Below, piece after piece: positions 2,789 to 56,914 of a stretch of 64,000 bases of DNA; the first letter of the stretch is position 1; each line of letters starts with the position of its first letter. The notes under the pieces were generated by a model. The model ran no database searches. It saw only the letters and a program-made list of their open reading frames with translations, and had not been told where the DNA came from. The stretch comes from Myxococcota bacterium (lineage in GTDB: Bacteria; Myxococcota_A; SURF-8; G963663525): the NCBI GenBank assembly GCA_963676915.2, contig CAXXVK010000027.1, positions 32,001 through 96,000 of the forward strand. The letters are read 5' to 3'. The position numbers and the translations under genes were made by a program.

Positions 2789-3817
2789 ATGAACGAATTC
2801 ACACGGATTTTCGGACTGTTGGCTTTGGCCTTGTTGCTTGTCGGCTGTTTCGGCGAAGACGATTCCACTTCCGGCCAGACCGGGCAGGCCGAGGACGACG
2901 CCTTTCGCAATGCTCTTCCCAACAGTGAAACTCTCAAGCTTGAAGTTCCCGAGTCGGAAGGCTCGAAAAAAATCATGCTGCGTGCCGTCGCCGCTCCGGT
3001 CGGCGAAACATCCGCTTATTATCTGGAAACCGTCCAGACGACACGAGCCATCAACTTCAGCGTGACTTTGCTGCTTTCCTGGCTGGATATTCTGGTCCAG
3101 TATCCCCCGTCGGAGCGCCTGGACAATGCCCGGATCTGGGGTCCGTGGCAGCCTGACGATGCCCTGAGTCAGATCGAACAGCGGTTGGTGGTCACTGAGA
3201 ACACCGAATCGGGAACGTTTGAATATTCCATGGAAGCGCGCAAGCTCGACAACGAGGACGGCGAGTGGACGAAAATCTGGTACGGAAACGTCGAACCGGA
3301 CGCCACCCAGGCTCATCATGGCATCGGCGACCTGACGCTGGATTTCGATGCCGCCGCCGAAATCGATCCTGCTGTGGTGGAACAAGGTCGTTTGGTGCTC
3401 GATTACGATACGGTCAGCGACGGTCGGCGCATCGAGGTGGAATTCATCGATTTTGTCGGGGAGGACAGTGACGGCGAGGTCGGCAACGGAAGTTACAGCT
3501 ACCACAGCCACGCCGATGGAACGGGCCGCTATTCCTTCACCCTCGTTGGAGACATTCACGCGGACGATCCCGACAAAGACCTGCCGGAACTGGAAGACAT
3601 TCAGATCGTTGCGACCTGGCAGGCCGATGGCCGTGGTCGGGCAGATGCTTCGGTCACCGGTGGCGACCTGGAAGCCGAAAGCTTCAAAGTTGTTGAATGC
3701 TGGGATACCTCGTTCCAAACTTCCTATTACATCGAGAGTGCGGTGCTGGACGGCGAAGAGTATTTCGACGAAGACGGCGACGAGGAAAGCTGTCCCGAGG
3801 TCGTCCCGGAATCCTGA
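2789..3817 (+). CDS. Acidic lipoprotein of unknown function (myxobacterial type)
   Basis: RBS AGGAGG, signal peptide with lipobox LLVG-C, beta-rich acidic body, downstream terminator. Confidence 0.8.
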   Translation: MNEFTRIFGLLALALLLVGCFGEDDSTSGQTGQAEDDAFRNALPNSETLKLEVPESEGSKKIMLRAVAAPVGETSAYYLETVQTTRAINFSVTLLLSWLDILVQYPPSERLDNARIWGPWQPDDALSQIEQRLVVTENTESGTFEYSMEARKLDNEDGEWTKIWYGNVEPDATQAHHGIGDLTLDFDAAAEIDPAVVEQGRLVLDYDTVSDGRRIEVEFIDFVGEDSDGEVGNGSYSYHSHADGTGRYSFTLVGDIHADDPDKDLPELEDIQIVATWQADGRGRADASVTGGDLEAESFKVVECWDTSFQTSYYIESAVLDGEEYFDEDGDEESCPEVVPES

Positions 3818-3841
3818 AAATTTTCTCTCGGCCCAACCAAC

Positions 3842-3869
3842 AAAACCCCGTCGGAAACAACGGGGTTTT
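3842..3869. terminator. Intrinsic terminator
   Basis: AAAACCCCGT-N8-ACGGGGTTTT between convergent genes. Confidence 0.75.
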
Positions 3870-3930
3870 CTTGATTGGGAAATAAGCCGTCAGATAGAGA
3901 AAATTTCCATGGTTCAGGTCTATCGGATAA

Positions 3931-7363: not shown

Positions 7364-7428
7364 GTAGGTCGGGCAAATTTCTTGCCCGACAATGCCAAGG
7401 TGTCGGGCAAGAAATTTGCCTGACTTAC
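7364..7428. repeat. GTAG-type REP inverted dimer (family C)
   Basis: GTAGGTCGGGCAAATTTCTTGCCCGACA-N9-TGTCGGGCAAGAAATTTGCCTGACTTAC; second dimer at 26339-26421. Confidence 0.9.
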
Positions 7429-7467
7429 GGGATTATCCTGAAATTCGAAGAATTTTCGGTAGGCTAA

Positions 7468-16121: not shown

Positions 16122-17852
16122 ATGGGCACTCTTAAAAGCAAACAACAACAGATTCAGCGATTGACCACGCTGATTCTGTTCCGAATCATCACCGTAACCG
16201 CCATTCTAGCGACCTCGGCGATCATGAGTTTTCGCTCGGCGGACTGGTGGACCCCGACCCAGCAGATCATGTTGAGCAGCATCGGCCTGATGTACCTGAT
16301 TTCCATCCTGTATCTTCTGGCCGTCAAATATAACGAAAACTTCCTGTTGCAGTCGATCGCCCAGATTTTCGGGGATTTGTTGTTCTGGTCCTGCATGGTC
16401 TACATCACCGGGGGATTGTCGAGTCCGTTCACGTTTTTATACAACCTGACGATCATCCTTTCCTCGCTGGTTTTCAGGAAACGCGGCATTGTAGGAACAA
16501 CGATAACGTCCTGCCTGATGCTGCTGGGTCTGACCTGGATGGAAAGCAATAAGATTTTCTTCGAGACGCTGCAATTGCAAAGCGCAACCGAAAGTCTGTT
16601 CGAAATCGAGGTGATCTATCGGTTTTTCCTCAATGTCTGCATGTTCAGCCTCATTGCCGTTTTATCGTATTACATCGCCGGTCAGGTTCGCAGCAGCGAG
16701 GATTCTCTGGTTCAACAGCAACTCAATCTCGACGAGCAAAAGCGGCTCAATCGCTCGATCATTCAGGGAATGCGTTCGGGATTGCTGATGGCCGGTCTCG
16801 ACGGAAAAATTCACTTCATCAACCGGGCTTTGCGTAAAATGGTCGGCAAAGAGGACGAAGACCTTCCCAACGATTTGATCGGACTTTTCCCGGTTTTGCG
16901 CGAATGTTTCCGTCTGGAGCAATGGGGAAGACCCTGGGCGCGGAAATTCGAGGGGGAAGTCAAGGTCGGAAACGATCGTAGATGGCTGTTTTTCCACTTC
17001 GCCGACCTGCTCGACGCGTTCAGCGAAAAAGACGGGATTTTGCTGATCGTCGAAGACCGCACCGAAACGCAACGTCTGAAAGAACGAATTTTCCAGAACG
17101 AAAAACTGGCGGCTTTGGGTAAACTGGCGGCGGGTATAGCCCATGAAATCCGCAATCCGCTGGCCAGCATTTCGGGATCGTTGCAGATGTTGCGCATGGA
17201 GTACGATACGGAAGACGACAACTCGCGTCTGATGGAAATCTCCCTGCAGGAAACCGAACGTCTCAATCGGCTGATCAACGACTTTTTGAGCTTCGCCCGA
17301 CCGATGGACCCCACCTTCGAAACGGTGGATCTCAAAGACGTTTTCGAGGAATTGAAACCTCTGATCAAGAACCAGGACATGGAACGGGACATCGAGGTGA
17401 CCTGGAGTACTCCACCGGACGTTTCCACCCGAATCGAAGCCGACAACGGGCAGATCCGGCAGATGATGTGGAACGTGATTTCCAACGCCATTCATGCGCT
17501 CAAACGAGGTGCCGGAACCGAAGGTGAGGCGCCTCGGGTGGATGTGATGGCGATGGTGGACCCGGAATACGATATCATCGGCGGGCGGCTGTTGCTCGCC
17601 ATTCAGGACAACGGCTGCGGAATGAGTGCGGACGTGGTAGAGAAACTGTTCGATCCTTTCTTTACCACACGAGCCGAAGGATCGGGGTTGGGGATGTCGA
17701 TCGTTTTCCAGATTATCGAAGCCCATCACGGGACGATCGAAATCGACTCCGAACCCGGTCGGGGCACCACGATGCTGATTCGCCTTCCTCGAAGTCAGCA
17801 GGATAGCGATATGGCCAATTCCTCTACGCAGCGAATCAAGGTGGTTTCATGA
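16122..17852 (+). CDS. pilS: Sensor histidine kinase PilS-like
   Basis: Six-TM N-terminus with YITGGLSSPFTFLY, PAS, AHEIRNPL, WNVISNA, DNGCG, GSGLG; overlaps pilR. Confidence 0.85.
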   Translation: MGTLKSKQQQIQRLTTLILFRIITVTAILATSAIMSFRSADWWTPTQQIMLSSIGLMYLISILYLLAVKYNENFLLQSIAQIFGDLLFWSCMVYITGGLSSPFTFLYNLTIILSSLVFRKRGIVGTTITSCLMLLGLTWMESNKIFFETLQLQSATESLFEIEVIYRFFLNVCMFSLIAVLSYYIAGQVRSSEDSLVQQQLNLDEQKRLNRSIIQGMRSGLLMAGLDGKIHFINRALRKMVGKEDEDLPNDLIGLFPVLRECFRLEQWGRPWARKFEGEVKVGNDRRWLFFHFADLLDAFSEKDGILLIVEDRTETQRLKERIFQNEKLAALGKLAAGIAHEIRNPLASISGSLQMLRMEYDTEDDNSRLMEISLQETERLNRLINDFLSFARPMDPTFETVDLKDVFEELKPLIKNQDMERDIEVTWSTPPDVSTRIEADNGQIRQMMWNVISNAIHALKRGAGTEGEAPRVDVMAMVDPEYDIIGGRLLLAIQDNGCGMSADVVEKLFDPFFTTRAEGSGLGMSIVFQIIEAHHGTIEIDSEPGRGTTMLIRLPRSQQDSDMANSSTQRIKVVS

Positions 17853-19279
17853 AACGAGCACGCATACTGATCGTCGATGACGAACAGAGCATGAGAGATT
17901 TTCTGCGGATTTTTTTCGCCAAGCAGGGTTACGACGCCATCGTTGCAGAAAACGGCGTGGATGCGTTGGAAAAAATCAAGCAAGAGCATTTCGATCTGGT
18001 AATGAGCGATATTCGAATGCCCGAAATGGACGGCATGCGGCTGCTGAACGAAGTACGTAATTTTTCGGACAGCTTGCAGGTCATCATCATGACGGCGTAC
18101 GGCTCCACTTCAGACGCGATCAAGGCGATGAAATTCGGAGCCTACGATTACATCACCAAGCCATTCCAACTCGAAGAAGTTCGGGTAACCGTTGAAAAAG
18201 CCCTGGAAAAAACGGAATTACTCAAGGAAAACCGCAATTTAAAAGAAGAACTGGACGACCGCTTCCGGGTCAATCGCATCATCGGTAAATCGAAAGCGAT
18301 GGAGGACGTTTTTTCGATGATCCGCAAGGTTGCGGACACCAAAACGAACATCCTGATTTCCGGGGAAAGCGGAACGGGAAAAGAGTTGGCGGCGCGTGCG
18401 ATCCATGGGAATTCCAACCGCAAAGATCGTCCTTTCGTGTCGGTCAACTGCGGAGCGATTCCCGGAGAATTGATGGAAAGCGAGCTGTTCGGTCACAAAC
18501 AAGGATCGTTCACCGGGGCAATCAAAGACAAAGACGGCCTGTTCCTCGCCGCCGATGGAGGAACGATTTTCCTGGATGAAATCGGGGAGTTACCGCTGCA
18601 ACTGCAAGTCAAGCTGCTGCGTGCCTTGCAAGAGCGGAAAATCATGCCCGTGGGCGATACCAAGGAAAAAACCATCGACACCCGCGTTTTAGCGGCAACC
18701 AACCGGGATCTGAAAGAACAGGTGGCGAGAGGGCTGTTTCGCGAGGATCTGTACTACCGGCTGAACGTGATTCAGATTCACCTTCCCCCACTGACCGAGC
18801 GTCGCGACGACATCCCGCTGCTGGTGCGGCATTTCGTGACGAAATATTCTAAAGAAATGGGATTGGAGCCGTTGCGGGTTTCCGAAGCGGCGATGATGAT
18901 TTTAAGCGGCCACGATTATCCCGGAAACGTGCGGGAGCTGGCCAATATCGTCGAACGGGCCGTAACGTTGGAAACCACCGAAAGTATTCGTCCGGAATCT
19001 CTGCCGCCGTCGTTGCTCGAACGCTTCGACCTGGAGCAGCCCGAAGAACCTGTCGCCGTCGGTCGTCAGCCGATTATCCCCGAAATGGGTGTGACATTGG
19101 ATTCGGTGCTGGAGCAGATCGAGCGGGAATATCTCGTCGAAGCGCTTGAAAATGCCAAAGGCGTGAAGAAAACGGCGGCGGACCTGTTGGGGATCAGTTT
19201 CCGATCCTTGCGATATCGTTTAAAAAAACTCGATCTCGAATCCAACGGCTCGGCAACGGTCAACGGAAAACTCAAATAA
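17849..19279 (+). CDS. pilR: Sigma54-dependent response regulator PilR-like
   Basis: Receiver domain, GESGTGKE, ESELFGH.QGSFTGA, FLDEIGE, HTH AADLLGISFRSLRYRL. Confidence 0.88.
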   Translation: MKRARILIVDDEQSMRDFLRIFFAKQGYDAIVAENGVDALEKIKQEHFDLVMSDIRMPEMDGMRLLNEVRNFSDSLQVIIMTAYGSTSDAIKAMKFGAYDYITKPFQLEEVRVTVEKALEKTELLKENRNLKEELDDRFRVNRIIGKSKAMEDVFSMIRKVADTKTNILISGESGTGKELAARAIHGNSNRKDRPFVSVNCGAIPGELMESELFGHKQGSFTGAIKDKDGLFLAADGGTIFLDEIGELPLQLQVKLLRALQERKIMPVGDTKEKTIDTRVLAATNRDLKEQVARGLFREDLYYRLNVIQIHLPPLTERRDDIPLLVRHFVTKYSKEMGLEPLRVSEAAMMILSGHDYPGNVRELANIVERAVTLETTESIRPESLPPSLLERFDLEQPEEPVAVGRQPIIPEMGVTLDSVLEQIEREYLVEALENAKGVKKTAADLLGISFRSLRYRLKKLDLESNGSATVNGKLK

Positions 19280-20261: not shown

Positions 20262-21923
20262 GTGGTGTATCGAAAGGATAAACGTCCGCTGAATCGTTTG
20301 TTCTCCAGCATCCAGCAGAGGTTGGGTCTCAACACCCTGCGCTTTCAACTCACCGTGAGTATCATGCTGGTGATGCTCGCCGCCGTGATGTTGATGGGTC
20401 TGGTTTTGTTGAACATAACCCGCAATATTTTCGTAGAAGAGAAAAGCGCCCAAACCTACGCTGTCGGCAGTGCCGTTCAGGAGGGGTTGCGCGAAATCAC
20501 CGAGAATAATCTGCACGCTTCGGCCAAACGAATGGGGCGCGAACTCTATCATCCCCAAACCTTTTATTCCATCACCTTTCTCGACCTCAATGACCGAGTG
20601 CTGTGGTCCAACCTGGAGATGTCTCAGTGGGGAATTTTCGTCAATACCCTTACGCATTATCGAAACCGTAGCCTGCGAAGAGTTCAGCAGGAGTTCGTCG
20701 AACATCCCCTGACCGGTGAAAGCCTGCTGGTGACGCATGTGCCCTGGATGTCCCACCGACGGATCGTCGGCTGGGTACAACTGACCTTCCCTCTGTTCAC
20801 CGAACGACAGCAGATGCTGTTTTCGGGGCGTCTCGTGCTGGTATACGCTATCGGTTTTTCGCTGCTATTGGCGTTTTTCGGAACGTTCGTGTTCAACCGG
20901 ATGGTGGTCTACCCGCTCGAAAAACTGACCCAGGCGACCCGAGATCTGGCGATGGGCCATAGCGTGGAACCGCTCGTTATGGATAGTTACAACGAGTTGG
21001 GTCGGCTGGCCGAGTCGTTCAACATCATGGCCGAGCAGTTGACGCAACGCGAGATGGAGTTGGACCGCCGTATCGAGGCCCAGGTGAAAATCAACGAAAC
21101 TCTGGAAGTCACCCGACAAGGGCTGATTCGCTCGGAAAAACTGGCTTCGGTCGGCAGTCTCGCGGCGGGTGTGGCCCACGAGGTGGGCAATCCTTTGCAG
21201 GCGATTTTAGGATACGTGGGAATTCTCAAAGACGGCGGAGTCGACGACGCCTTGCAACAGGACATTTTGCAGCGAATCGAAAATGACATCAGCCGCATTC
21301 ACGAAATCATCAGCGGACTGCTTTCCTATTCCCGTAGTGGCACGGGAAAGCCTTCGAGCGTGGATCTCAATGAAATCATTAAAGAAACTCTCGAAATGAT
21401 TCAGTTGCAGCAGCAGTTCAAGAATGTGGAATTCGACTACCAGTCGATTCTTCGTCCGGCGATGGTGCGGCTCGTACCGGGACAGTTGCAACAGGTGCTG
21501 GTGAATCTGTTTCTCAATGCTGCTCAAGCCATGGATAACGAAGGCCAGATCCAGATTTTCGTCGAGGGTGTGGATTACGATCCTCAACTGACGTTTCGGC
21601 AGCGAGGACAGCGATTCAAAGCCGGGCAACAGCTTGTCAGTTTGGCAGTCATGGACAACGGTCCCGGTATCTCGGAGGAAATTCAGGGAAGACTGTTCGA
21701 TCCGTTTTTCACGACGAAGGAAGTCGGACAAGGCACGGGACTAGGGTTGAGTGTCTGCGATTCGATCGTGGACTTTTTCGGGGGAAGTATCGACGTGCAG
21801 AGCCGTCCCGGAGAAGGGTCGACCTTCATCATCTTATTGCCATTGGATAACGAACTGGCTGCCGAACTGGACGAGTTGTCCGTGGAACTCGAGTCTGTGA
21901 CCCTGGAGCCTTCCGACGGGTGA
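20262..21923 (+). CDS. HAMP-domain sensor histidine kinase
   Basis: Two TM helices, HAMP (NELGRLAESFNIM), AHEVGNPL, LVNLFLNA, DNGPG, GTGLGL. Confidence 0.92.
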   Translation: MVYRKDKRPLNRLFSSIQQRLGLNTLRFQLTVSIMLVMLAAVMLMGLVLLNITRNIFVEEKSAQTYAVGSAVQEGLREITENNLHASAKRMGRELYHPQTFYSITFLDLNDRVLWSNLEMSQWGIFVNTLTHYRNRSLRRVQQEFVEHPLTGESLLVTHVPWMSHRRIVGWVQLTFPLFTERQQMLFSGRLVLVYAIGFSLLLAFFGTFVFNRMVVYPLEKLTQATRDLAMGHSVEPLVMDSYNELGRLAESFNIMAEQLTQREMELDRRIEAQVKINETLEVTRQGLIRSEKLASVGSLAAGVAHEVGNPLQAILGYVGILKDGGVDDALQQDILQRIENDISRIHEIISGLLSYSRSGTGKPSSVDLNEIIKETLEMIQLQQQFKNVEFDYQSILRPAMVRLVPGQLQQVLVNLFLNAAQAMDNEGQIQIFVEGVDYDPQLTFRQRGQRFKAGQQLVSLAVMDNGPGISEEIQGRLFDPFFTTKEVGQGTGLGLSVCDSIVDFFGGSIDVQSRPGEGSTFIILLPLDNELAAELDELSVELESVTLEPSDG

Positions 21924-26329: not shown

Positions 26330-26338
26330 GAATCACAA

Positions 26339-26421
26339 GTAGGTCGGGCAAATTTCTTACCCGACACTTTGATTGTAAGCTGCAACTCTGAACTGTCGGG
26401 CAAGAAATTTGCCCGACCTAC
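26339..26421. repeat. GTAG-type REP inverted dimer (family C)
   Basis: GTAGGTCGGGCAAATTTCTTACCCGACA-N27-TGTCGGGCAAGAAATTTGCCCGACCTAC between convergent genes. Confidence 0.9.
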
Positions 26422-26452
26422 TCAATTTAAAAACTGAAATAATTACGACTCG

Positions 26453-34703: not shown

Positions 34704-35813
<1,110 letters not shown>

Positions 35814-35842
35814 TCGCCTAAACGAAGTCCGAATGAACAATC

Positions 35843-35875
35843 AAGCGTCACCGAAATTTTCGGTGGCGCTTTTTT
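35843..35875 (+). terminator. Intrinsic terminator
   Basis: AAGCGTCACCGAA-AT-TTTCGGTGGCGCTT followed by a T-tract. Confidence 0.8.
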
Positions 35876-36235
35876 CATGTGTGTGCGGGTGGGTACGGAA
35901 AAGCTCTCCAATATGTAAAGATTTCAAGTAAAAGCCACATTGCCTGTGTGGGTCGCCTGACAAGCCCGACTTTTTTGTCATATCTCGTCCCGATTTTTCT
36001 TCTTTTTAAAACTTTGCACGATCCCTTGTCTTTGGGAAAAGCAAAGTTACTCCAATCTTTTTGAATGTTTTCCGTATTTTCAAGCGGGAGGCGTTGTAGG
36101 GTTTCTGAAAAAAATGGCTGTGTTTTTTTCATTCGTGACTTGACAGATGGTGGACTGATCTTACTTTGGATCGTTTTGAAAAAACGTAAATATTGTGAAT
36201 ATACTGCACATAACTGTTGGAAATCAGGAAAGTTC

Positions 36236-36265
36236 TTGACAAACACCTAATAAAACCTTTAAAAT
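36236..36265 (+). promoter_or_regulatory. Candidate sigma70 promoter for the long leader
   Basis: TTGACA-N18-TAAAAT. Confidence 0.55.
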
Positions 36266-36311
36266 TCCCCCGTTTAAAGGTAGCGGATTTCTAAATTGAA
36301 TATATTTTATT

Positions 36312-36585
36312 GGAGGGTGACAAGTCGGATAAGCCGACCTGAAAGGGTGGTGACATTCTTTCAACGGAGGCTCTTGGGAAAGAGCACGGCATGATTTCAA
36401 GGCTTTTTACCCTCCTGACACATTCGGCACGCTTTTTGCTGAATACTTAGCGCATCGCAAGACGGTCACGGGTGTGGACAATGTTTCTCGCAAATGTGAT
36501 CGTAGCGCCGAATGGACGCACTGATAACCGATTTGGACCGAATTCCCGTTGTGGGTAATGGTGTCCGGCCAAAGAAAGAGCCGGA
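36312..36585 (+). ncRNA. Candidate structured 5' leader RNA (unassigned)
   Basis: Nested stems 36312-36326/36401-36415, 36421-36428/36507-36514, 36462-36469/36496-36503; GNRA-capped hairpins. Confidence 0.5.
36424..36440 (+). promoter_or_regulatory. Sigma54 (-24/-12) promoter candidate
   Basis: TCGGCACGCTTTTTGCT versus consensus YTGGCACG-N4-TTGCW; exact GG-N10-GC spacing. Confidence 0.65.
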
Positions 36586-36616
36586 AAAATTTTTTCATAG
36601 TTCATAAGGAGGACTC

Positions 36617-37462
36617 ATGAACCGCAAAATGTTTGCCCTGATGATGGCCCTGATGCTCGTTTTCAGTCTCGCGTTTGTCGCCTGTGGCGATGATGACGAT
36701 GATGAAAACAACAACAACCCCGCCGAAGGTACCGAAGGCGGCGCCTGCAAGACGATGGAAACCCCCACGGCTTGTGACGACGACAATCCCTGTGACACTG
36801 GCTACACCTGCACCGAAGGTTTCTGTGTTGCCGACGTGACCGAGAAGCTGTTCGAAGCCGAAGAAGATGATGCCAACGCCGCTGGCGATGACTACAGCGC
36901 TTGCGTAGGCAAAGACATCAGCATGGGTCTGTGTAACCTCGGCCTGTTCTGCGACACCGACGTCATCTGCAAGCTGCCGGAAAACGTCACCGATTTCGAC
37001 ATGACCATCTGTGGCGACGACACCCCCGAGTGTGACGACGACAATCCCTGCGACGAAGGCTACAGCTGCGTCGAAGGCGCCTGCGTCGAAGACACCGTAG
37101 ATCCTTGCGATCCCAACCCCTGCGAGAACGATGGCGAAATCTGCACCGCCGATGAAACCGCCACTGACGGTTACACCTGCGCCTGCGATACCGACATGGA
37201 ACTGTACGAGCGCACCGACCTCGCCATGTGCGTCCCCGTGGATTACTGCGTGGATGGCCTCTTCAACACCGCTTGCAACGAAGCCAAAGAATTCGCCGTT
37301 GGCGCCGCCACCGGTGGAGACGACTGCGAAGCCGTGACCTGCACCGAAGACGCCGAATGCGCCTACCTGGCCGCTTGCGACGATCCCGACAACCTGCCGA
37401 CCATCACCACCTTCATCTGTGACGGTGGAAGCTGTGTCCGCGGCGAACCGGCTGCCGAGTAA
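36617..37462 (+). CDS. Very acidic Cys-rich lipoprotein (29 Cys) with internal repeat and EGF-like module
   Basis: RBS AGGAGG, lipobox FVA-C, two CDDDNPCD.GY.C.EG.CV repeats, DPCDPNPCENDGEIC...YTCAC. Confidence 0.85.
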   Translation: MNRKMFALMMALMLVFSLAFVACGDDDDDENNNNPAEGTEGGACKTMETPTACDDDNPCDTGYTCTEGFCVADVTEKLFEAEEDDANAAGDDYSACVGKDISMGLCNLGLFCDTDVICKLPENVTDFDMTICGDDTPECDDDNPCDEGYSCVEGACVEDTVDPCDPNPCENDGEICTADETATDGYTCACDTDMELYERTDLAMCVPVDYCVDGLFNTACNEAKEFAVGAATGGDDCEAVTCTEDAECAYLAACDDPDNLPTITTFICDGGSCVRGEPAAE

Positions 37463-37488: not shown

Positions 37489-37521
37489 AAACGCCCTCCC
37501 GATCGGGAGGGCGTTTTTTTT
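37489..37521 (+). terminator. Strong intrinsic terminator
   Basis: AAACGCCCTCCC-GATC-GGGAGGGCGTTT followed by a T-tract. Confidence 0.92.
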
Positions 37522-53717: not shown

Positions 53718-53947
53718 TTCCCGACGATGGAGGCGGGTGCCACGGTCTTCGATTCAAAGAATCGATGGCCGTGCAACCTATTAAAATCACACGGCTCAGA
53801 CGATGGAGCAGGATTGTATCCTGGTCCAATCGTTCATGATTTCAGCACCTTGTTCGGGAAATGGATAGACAATGTAGCCAGAGCTACATCTGAGTGATTC
53901 AAAACATGAGGAAGGAGCAGGATACAATCCTGCTCCATCGTCGGGAA
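53718..53947. repeat. Family-B REP inverted dimer with a nested family-A fragment
   Basis: TTCCCGACGATGGAG (53718-53732) / CTCCATCGTCGGGAA (53933-53947); B palindromes 53805-53827 and 53914-53936; A fragment 53735-53795 between GACGATGGAG direct repeats. Confidence 0.85.
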
Positions 53948-56813: not shown

Positions 56814-56914
56814 GGTGACCGGGGATTTCGCAGCACACGCAGGAGATCGCTACCGCTGCTTCCTTTCGGACCTGACGGGGTTCACGGACCTGAGTCGCAC
56901 GAAGCCCGGCCACC
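56814..56914 (-). ncRNA. ffs: Signal recognition particle RNA (small, 4.5S type)
   Basis: Minus strand GAACCCCGTCAGGTCCGAAAGGAAGCAGCGGTA core; closing stem GGTGGCCGGG/CCCGGTCACC; upstream of dnaX. Confidence 0.95.

Follow-up and report, generated by a model that had tools for sequence, protein, structure and literature searches.

A long structured 5' untranslated region stabilises the mRNA of the abundant envelope protein OmpA in E. coli, and RNA thermometers and repressor hairpins pair the Shine-Dalgarno sequence and the start codon for translational control. At the level of transcription, the E. coli gene glnA has tandem sigma-70 and sigma-54 promoters, glnAp1 and glnAp2 (PMC3870243). Sigma-54 promoters carry GG and TGC at -24/-12, and their enhancers usually lie ~70–150 bp upstream (PMC3844500, which also lists comparable promoters).

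The locus described here resembles each of these systems in some respects. It lies within a stretch of DNA of 64,000 nucleotides (hereafter the window), in an intergenic gap measuring 803 nt (35814–36616), in agreement with the ~800-bp intergenic region in which a preliminary description had flagged a large, multi-domain structured RNA at 36312–36600. The gap separates an OmpA/thrombospondin-repeat gene, whose intrinsic terminator marks the left boundary of the regulatory region, from a gene for a Cys-rich lipoprotein with its own terminator (Table 1). The top NCBIfam match of the upstream gene was the outer membrane exchange protein TraB, at 179.7 bits, far under the cut-off of 700. For the lipoprotein, the Pfam, NCBIfam and Atlas matches were all sub-threshold and give weak leads only as to its family. 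Contigs of the sequencing runs X2 and X3 fall on the lipoprotein coding region only, as does an assembled RNA-library contig (run X5), which covers 37060–37205.

Our preferred reading, to which we give a probability of roughly 0.48, just short of even odds, is that the gap is a composite control region of a monocistronic, genus-restricted lipoprotein gene with a conserved proximal leader of ~165 nt, and not one large riboswitch-like RNA. Comparison with one congener shows that two predicted sigma-70-like promoters and a sigma-54-type match are conserved and that domain 1, which lies between them, is not. It also shows four conserved features at the RNA level: hairpin B, whose structure is kept; a near-invariant block of 36 nt; a short hairpin that varies in its loop and precedes an A5U6 tract; and an invariant hairpin that pairs half of the Shine-Dalgarno sequence and the AUG (SD/AUG hairpin). 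Under this reading, the sigma-70 promoters would provide constitutive transcription of the lipoprotein gene and an enhancer-dependent sigma-54 promoter would add transcription on signal, starting near 36452, with the proximal leader common to all transcripts. Hairpin B might then shield the 5' end of the short transcript and the SD/AUG hairpin might restrict translation initiation, the invariant 36-nt block being where a trans-acting factor, either a small RNA or a protein such as CsrA, would dock and tune translation or decay; this factor is purely hypothetical. Domain 1, carried by the long transcripts of this lineage only, would be either an accessory stabilising structure or functionless.

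As for glnA (PMC3870243), an upstream sigma-70 and a downstream sigma-54 promoter are predicted for one gene, the conserved DNA at the upstream promoter could double as activator sites, and the intervening DNA varies. The locus differs from glnA in its larger spacing, ~190 and 250 bp separating the sigma-70 -35 hexamers from the -24 element downstream of them, and in the long (~165 nt) and conserved leader behind the predicted sigma-54 site. Features in common with ompA are a monocistronic envelope protein gene behind promoters predicted to be strong, a Shine-Dalgarno sequence that is likewise strong, and stable hairpins in a long leader, one of them near a predicted 5' end. However, the two are unrelated in sequence, a stabilising role is here only conjectural, and the most stable element, domain 1, is not conserved. 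If true, our reading would make the locus a compact case of control in layers, in which a gene for a secreted lipoprotein combines a conserved leader with two promoters of constitutive type and a third, sigma-54 one that depends on an enhancer, all in a little-studied lineage that encodes many enhancer-binding proteins.

Table 1 Features of the intergenic gap and its flanks, with identity to the congener in successive segments.
Feature	Position	Strand	Details or basis
OmpA/thrombospondin-repeat (TSP3) gene	34704–35813	+	upstream neighbour
Intrinsic terminator of the OmpA/TSP3 gene	35843–35871	+	13-pair stem, then T run
Promoter P2, sigma-70-like (predicted), TTGAAA-18-TATACT	36176–36205	+	10/12 matches
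34-nt block	36210–36243	+	one substitution relative to congener; spans P1 -35 and 26 nt upstream
Promoter P1, sigma-70-like (predicted), TTGACA-18-TAAAAT	36236–36265	+	11/12 matches
22-nt AT-rich block	36287–36308	+	identical in congener; alignment
Domain 1	36312–36415	+	very stable multi-stem fold in this genome only; folding against shuffles
Domain 1 closing arms	36312–36326 / 36401–36415		repeat search: 13-nt arms, 85% complementary
Domain 1 inner helix GCCG/CGGC	36333–36 / 36387–90		
Domain 1 hairpin GCTCTT-GGGA-AAGAGC	36370–85		
Domain 2, three-way junction	36421–36514	+	closing helix, short CGCT/AGCG helix, hairpin B
Domain 2 closing helix	36421–28 / 36507–14		
Sigma-54 (RpoN) type promoter match	36425–36440	+	GG 36426–27, TGC 36438–40, exact spacing
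Domain 2 helix ACGGTCAC / GTGATCGT	36461–68 / 36496–36503		
Hairpin B	36462–36503	+	structure kept despite ~40% divergence
Domain 3 helix GGACGC/GTGTCC	36514–19 / 36561–66		
36-nt block	36536–36571	+	one substitution (36550, hairpin loop); alignment with congener
Short hairpin, then A5, T6	36564–36595	+	5–6 pairs, 10-nt loop; sequence
Domain 3 helix CCGGC/GCCGG	36565–69 / 36580–84		
SD/AUG hairpin	36595–36620	+	pairs 3' half of Shine-Dalgarno and AUG (36617–19); consensus fold
Shine-Dalgarno AAGGAGGA	36606–36613	+	
Cys-rich lipoprotein gene, 281 aa	36617–37462	+	ORF, downstream of gap
Intrinsic terminator closing the monocistronic unit	37489–37516	+	12-pair stem, then T run; kept in congener
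Identity to congener	35970–35999		90%
Identity to congener	36210–36239		97%
Identity to congener	36270–36329		70–77%
Identity to congener, domain 1 core	36330–36419		27–40%
Identity to congener	36420–36539		57–67%
Identity to congener	36540–36569		97%
Identity to congener	36600–36689		90–97%

BLAST found the leader in 2 of 41 genomes, the window's own and that of the congener (G001), where the match had 78% identity and covered 36424–36620 only. The leader is single-copy in its own genome, with a next-best match of 25 nt (E 0.23); a REP/MITE-like repeat was discarded, as the leader has no second genomic copy and the repeat families seen in the genome are unrelated to it. Among the 401 genomes of the phylum searched, only the congener has a full-length ortholog of the lipoprotein (71% identity), the other 25 genomes with a match showing partial ones of at most 36.8 bits. 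A protein-guided metagenome scan yielded 32 loci, none of them orthologous, and a domain-3 core pattern had two chance matches in the species collection, inside ORFs of unrelated taxa and with no flank similarity. A covariance model of domain 2 run over 61 genomes retrieved its two training sequences only, one copy per genome. With a single copy in 2 of 61 genomes, a recurrent new motif class is not demonstrated, nor is a new RNA class established by a single-copy element from one genus in the searched set with two full sequences. All leader comparisons involve these two sequences plus two 151-nt contigs from run X4, so that covariation in the leader is that between just two genomes.

The flanking genes differ from those of the congener by synonymous changes in 40 of 171 and 86 of 248 identical-residue codons (23–35%), and intergenic background identity is 27–50%. 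No upstream ORF or leader peptide in the gap is conserved between the two species, supporting the view that the region is non-coding; the sole start common to both reads MNIF, after which the sequences diverge, and a leader peptide was rejected. RNA-level constraint on the first 25 lipoprotein codons was rejected too, since synonymous changes there (3 of 19 codons) did not differ from those elsewhere (40 of 171). Farther upstream, a block at 35958–35990 is 90% identical in the congener amid otherwise unalignable intergenic DNA. With its TGACAA ... TTGTCA dyad, this block, which lies ~270 bp before the sigma-70-like promoters, may be a site for a regulator.

The TTGACA-N18-TAAAAT promoter reported upstream of the putative RNA is present (P1), and the congener has a promoter-like TTGACA-18-TAGAAT at the orthologous place, with 11 of 12 hexamer positions kept. 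The P2 hexamers are identical in both species (12/12), with 8 of 18 identical positions in the spacer; at both sites the spacers diverge while the hexamers stay. Starts from the sigma-70-like promoters would fall near 36212 and 36272, and the long leader would measure ~345 nt. Around them, the 34-nt block is a candidate operator or enhancer site, and the 22-nt AT-rich block, which sits 118–139 bp upstream of the sigma-54 -24 element, could be either the 5' part of a P1 transcript or a DNA-bending/activator site.

Every helix listed in the preliminary description could be located in the sequence at 36312–36600. The region 36280–36620 folds at -111.7 kcal/mol on the plus strand (z -3.23, 1 of 100 shuffles as good), against z -1.59 on the minus strand. 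Domain 1 carries this folding signal: 36305–36420 reached -45.9 kcal/mol (z -4.43, 0 of 200 shuffles as good) and, in a second run, z -4.59 on the plus strand against -3.02 on the minus strand. Taken without it, domains 2–3 (36416–36620) did not stand out significantly from shuffles (z -1.24; 22 of 200 did as well). When 116-nt segments of the 64-kb window are compared by GC-adjusted energy, 26 of 6390 equal or surpass domain 1, and the more extreme of them come mostly from a small number of loci, among them copies of palindromic repeats and hairpins resembling terminators. The ACCT-GAAA-GGGT hairpin of domain 1 exists in the sequence, but the minimum-energy fold prefers a longer, 12-pair alternative.

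The orthologous stretch of the congener folds at -24.2 kcal/mol (z +1.57, 196 of 200 shuffles at least as good), its analogue of the closing helix has a probability of 0.002 and costs 5 kcal/mol to force, and the whole leader there has a z of -0.22. Runs X3 and X4 contain a relative at ~93% identity. One X4 contig, 93% identical, covers 36314–36462 with 10 differences; among the five listed, three fall in domain 1, two of which turn pairs into G-U (36363 A>G and 36415 C>T), the third (36365) being unpaired. These changes weakly hint at constraint on domain 1 within the window's own lineage, where it may matter because it is a strong fold outlier (z -4.4) and the two paired-site changes keep pairing. 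Domain 1 is therefore a real fold here, but not a conserved part of the leader. We also considered CCCTCC at 36410–15 as an anti-Shine-Dalgarno sequence and rejected it: its partner helix is not kept in the congener (probability 0.002), and it lies ~190 nt from the Shine-Dalgarno sequence, unlike CT-rich insulators, which are described within 25 bp (bioRxiv 10.1101/086108).

The preliminary description had united these helices into one three-domain cis-regulatory RNA, transcribed from the P1 promoter, that would sense a ligand or factor and switch the helices of domain 3. All the helices exist, the plus strand folds better than both shuffles and the minus strand, and the sigma-70-like promoter is conserved in the congener, as is the topology of domain 2, with some pairs changed on both sides; the X4 variant, moreover, retains domain 1 pairs. 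We nonetheless regard such an RNA as improbable. Domain 1 is missing as structure, and nearly as sequence, from the congener, and the upper part of hairpin A in domain 2 is paired differently in the two species. The helices supposed to compete in domain 3 share 2–3 nt only and form together in minimum-energy folds, and the CCGGC/GCCGG hairpin is not a canonical terminator. A generic riboswitch has an aptamer conserved, with covariation, across many taxa or loci, whereas this leader is single-copy and occurs in 2 of 61 genomes. No Rfam 15 family reached its gathering score in 35800–36700; with E values up to 10, the best match (20.6 bits) fell on the upstream terminator, and the congener likewise gave no family match. 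The covariance-model search thus agrees with the earlier statement that the leader matches none of the known riboswitches considered (c-di-GMP, cobalamin, lysine, glmS, ydaO, Moco). No known RNA family fits, and a gene-specific structured leader in a composite promoter region is a known arrangement.

For the conserved core of domain 2, a sigma-54 promoter would be at least as good an explanation as RNA structure. Sigma-54 promoters start transcription ~12 nt downstream of their GC and depend on an activator bound upstream. The best-conserved block of the domain (36424–36443) contains a match to 11 of 12 specified positions of the sigma-54 consensus, with a predicted start near 36452. It is the sole match with at most one mismatch in the 64-kb window, where 0.63 are expected per 128 kb (both strands) and ~0.004 for the gap on this strand; window-wide, at least one match appears in 49 of 100 shuffles, so that a single match is in itself unsurprising. 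The congener has its match at the orthologous place (L002:1502–1517, with 0.02 expected), the sole change being in the N4 spacer. Against this promoter, the T usual at -26 (TGGCA) is a C in the window and the congener alike. The genome encodes rpoN (218.7 bits) and has 26 Sigma54_activat matches, 22 of which, at 134 bits or more, represent strong enhancer-binding proteins. Genome-wide, 15 of the 34 sigma-54 matches with at most one mismatch fall in the 9.6% of the genome free of ORFs; four of these 15 are repeat copies and two are paralogous, and without the four repeat copies 11 of 30 are in ORF-free DNA (p 6e-5). Also against it, no enhancer-binding protein gene adjoins the locus, the nearest being ~18 kb away. 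That gene occupies 17849–19279 on the plus strand (domain match 18278–18781, 246.9 bits), and a histidine kinase gene lies ~1 kb downstream of it, at 20262–21923.

The same sigma-54-like block attracted sub-threshold matches to the Rfam narK RNA (RF03032) in both species, at 36426–36458 (14.9 bits) and at L002 1503–1566 (15.9 bits), against a gathering score of 43.2. The likeness stops there: the window alignment matches unpaired consensus positions only, skipping 38 between them, and the matching letters are those that fit the sigma-54 consensus. The 5' consensus of the narK RNA family itself resembles a -24/-12 promoter.

Given a start near 36452, the predicted transcript would lack domain 1, the 5' strand of the domain 2 closing helix and hairpin A. 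This putative start falls practically at the position (~36451) that the preliminary description had itself set against its large RNA, which as drawn would thus not be made from it. It need not be the only start, as two sigma-70-like sites are conserved. The locus illustrates how a stretch that folds strongly can pass for a riboswitch, domain 1 being specific to its lineage and the adjacent conserved core being better read as a promoter.

Independent minimum-energy folds of domain 2 in the window and the congener have the same three-way junction topology. When only the positions differing between the two species were shuffled, domain 2 beat 999 of 1000 shuffles in the congener (1/1000 as good, z -3.55) and 980 of 1000 in the window (20/1000 as good, z -2.31). 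Such shuffles matched or exceeded the observed length of the closing helix in 17 of 1000 cases for the congener and in 127 of 1000 for the window. When the two sequences were aligned to a model based on the window only, 96.1% of 51 cells paired and 4 of 27 pairs changed on both sides; as this two-sequence alignment leans towards structure, its covariation, reached in 26 of 500 shuffles, has to be read in that light. With sequence-only MAFFT alignments, in which the domain 2 piece was poorly aligned, the structure-conservation index was significant for no domain (20 to 178 of 200 column shuffles as good). In the upper part of hairpin A the two species adopt different pairing registers, and CGCT/AGCG alone is common to both and invariant. 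The TC-GCAA-GA element noted in domain 2 is present but has two pairs only. For hairpin B, which would occupy positions +11 to +52 of the predicted sigma-54 transcript, variable-position shuffles were as good in 75 of 2000 cases in the window and in 25 of 2000 in the congener. The RNA-level signal claimed for the leader thus holds for hairpin B and, weakly, for the domain 2 closing helix, but not for domain 3, which shows sequence conservation only (z -0.93 and +0.27 beyond it).

The latter result would be expected if the conserved islands acted exclusively as DNA, that is, as promoter, operator and enhancer sites, all the folds including hairpin B being incidental and without any post-transcriptional role. 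The coincidence of conserved blocks with the three promoter-like sites and the lack of significant structure in domains 2–3 also agree with this possibility, which we consider doubtful all the same. The 36-nt block and the ribosome-binding region, both downstream of every predicted start, are 97% identical, the pairing of hairpin B has been kept through ~40% divergence, and the strand asymmetry of folding favours RNA.

The composite reading that we prefer attributes these conserved sequences to a proximal leader of ~165 nt, with four elements downstream of all predicted starts. As a whole it is not significantly structured (z -1.14 and -1.67). Its 36-nt block contains a hairpin (36542–36559) and the 3' strand of GGACGC/GTGTCC. 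That strand overlaps CCGGC by 2 nt, or by 3 if the U-A pair 36564/36585 is counted, and the two helices form together in the minimum-energy folds of both species. The short hairpin that follows has a conserved stem and a variable loop in the congener. With five A between its stem and the T run, and missing as it is from the output of the intrinsic terminator scan, it does not qualify as a canonical terminator.

These properties make it very improbable that the hairpin at 36564–36585 and its T run form a conditional terminator with the leader deciding on read-through. Such attenuation would fit the conserved stem, the variable loop, a T6 tract that precedes the Shine-Dalgarno sequence by ~20 nt and the partial overlap with GTGTCC, one strand of the alternative helix. 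However, that overlap amounts to just 2–3 nt, the stem has 5–6 pairs only below a loop of 10 nt, five A come before the T run, and the terminator scan did not report the hairpin. Hardly credible at all is a small RNA of ~320 nt with a gene of its own that would stop short of the ribosome-binding site, the lipoprotein gene being expressed independently of it. The conserved promoter and the hairpin with its T run ahead of the ribosome-binding site could be taken for its two ends, but as a terminator this hairpin is weak, the middle part of such an RNA lacks conservation, and the stretch from 36597 to the Shine-Dalgarno sequence at 36606 is too short for another promoter.

Returning to the composite control region, its last element is the SD/AUG hairpin, predicted in both species at -6.8 kcal/mol. 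Since its sequence is identical in the congener, there is no covariation to test, and with 19 of 200 shuffled columns as good it is not better than shuffles; in the full leader, the AUG has a pairing probability of 0.95–0.99. Like the hairpins known for translational control, it pairs the AUG and the 3' half of the Shine-Dalgarno sequence; it differs from RNA thermometers in lacking ROSE or fourU features and an Rfam match. Leaders controlled by CsrA carry at least two conserved GGA motifs in loops, one of them at the Shine-Dalgarno sequence. Here a GGA lies in the loop of the SD/AUG hairpin, the other GGA motifs of the leader being partly not conserved, and the genome encodes CsrA (80.2 bits). 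Hfq docking on the A-rich loop was rejected, as Hfq was not found in this genome, which is 90.8% complete. The second X4 contig matches 36534–36613 with one difference and then runs into sequence like window 36172–36200, so that at the joint after 36613 the start codon is replaced by sequence resembling the region upstream of P2. A relative might thus carry a tandem copy here or have the region arranged differently. A tandem duplication of the leader, prompted by this joint, was rejected because neither the window nor the congener has significant internal similarity.

A more elaborate scenario, which we think has a small chance of being right, is that promoter choice sets the leader fold, yielding two mRNA isoforms translated or degraded differently, with the invariant block and hairpin B as a genus-specific regulatory element. 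In long sigma-70 transcripts, the DNA of the sigma-54 promoter would double as the 5' strand of both hairpin A and the closing helix, and domain 1 would adjoin the three-way junction. In short sigma-54 transcripts that 5' strand would be missing, leaving 36507–36514 free to refold with the 36-nt block. The element might serve a hitherto undescribed kind of ligand or protein.

Elsewhere in the window, the most stable folds belong to a family of long, perfectly palindromic intergenic repeats at ~7364–7429 and 26338–26422 (-83.6 and -74.2 kcal/mol), for which two query stretches of 181–201 nt gave 130 and 88 genome-wide BLAST matches. A second repeat family, of ~97 nt, is present at 375–468 on the minus strand, as a partial copy at 53735–53775 and on other contigs of G000; one copy folds very stably (-58.8 kcal/mol), and most of the 24 BLAST matches listed have 85–95% identity over at least 93 nt. 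Some of its copies mimic the sigma-54 consensus, and it has no Rfam match at gathering score in the window. Strong folds with terminator-like G+C hairpins between A and T runs also occur at 235–276 and at ~3805–3920 on the minus strand, the latter stretch being single-copy in the genome. Finally, a full-length bacterial small SRP RNA is encoded at 56814–56911 on the minus strand (68.2 bits).
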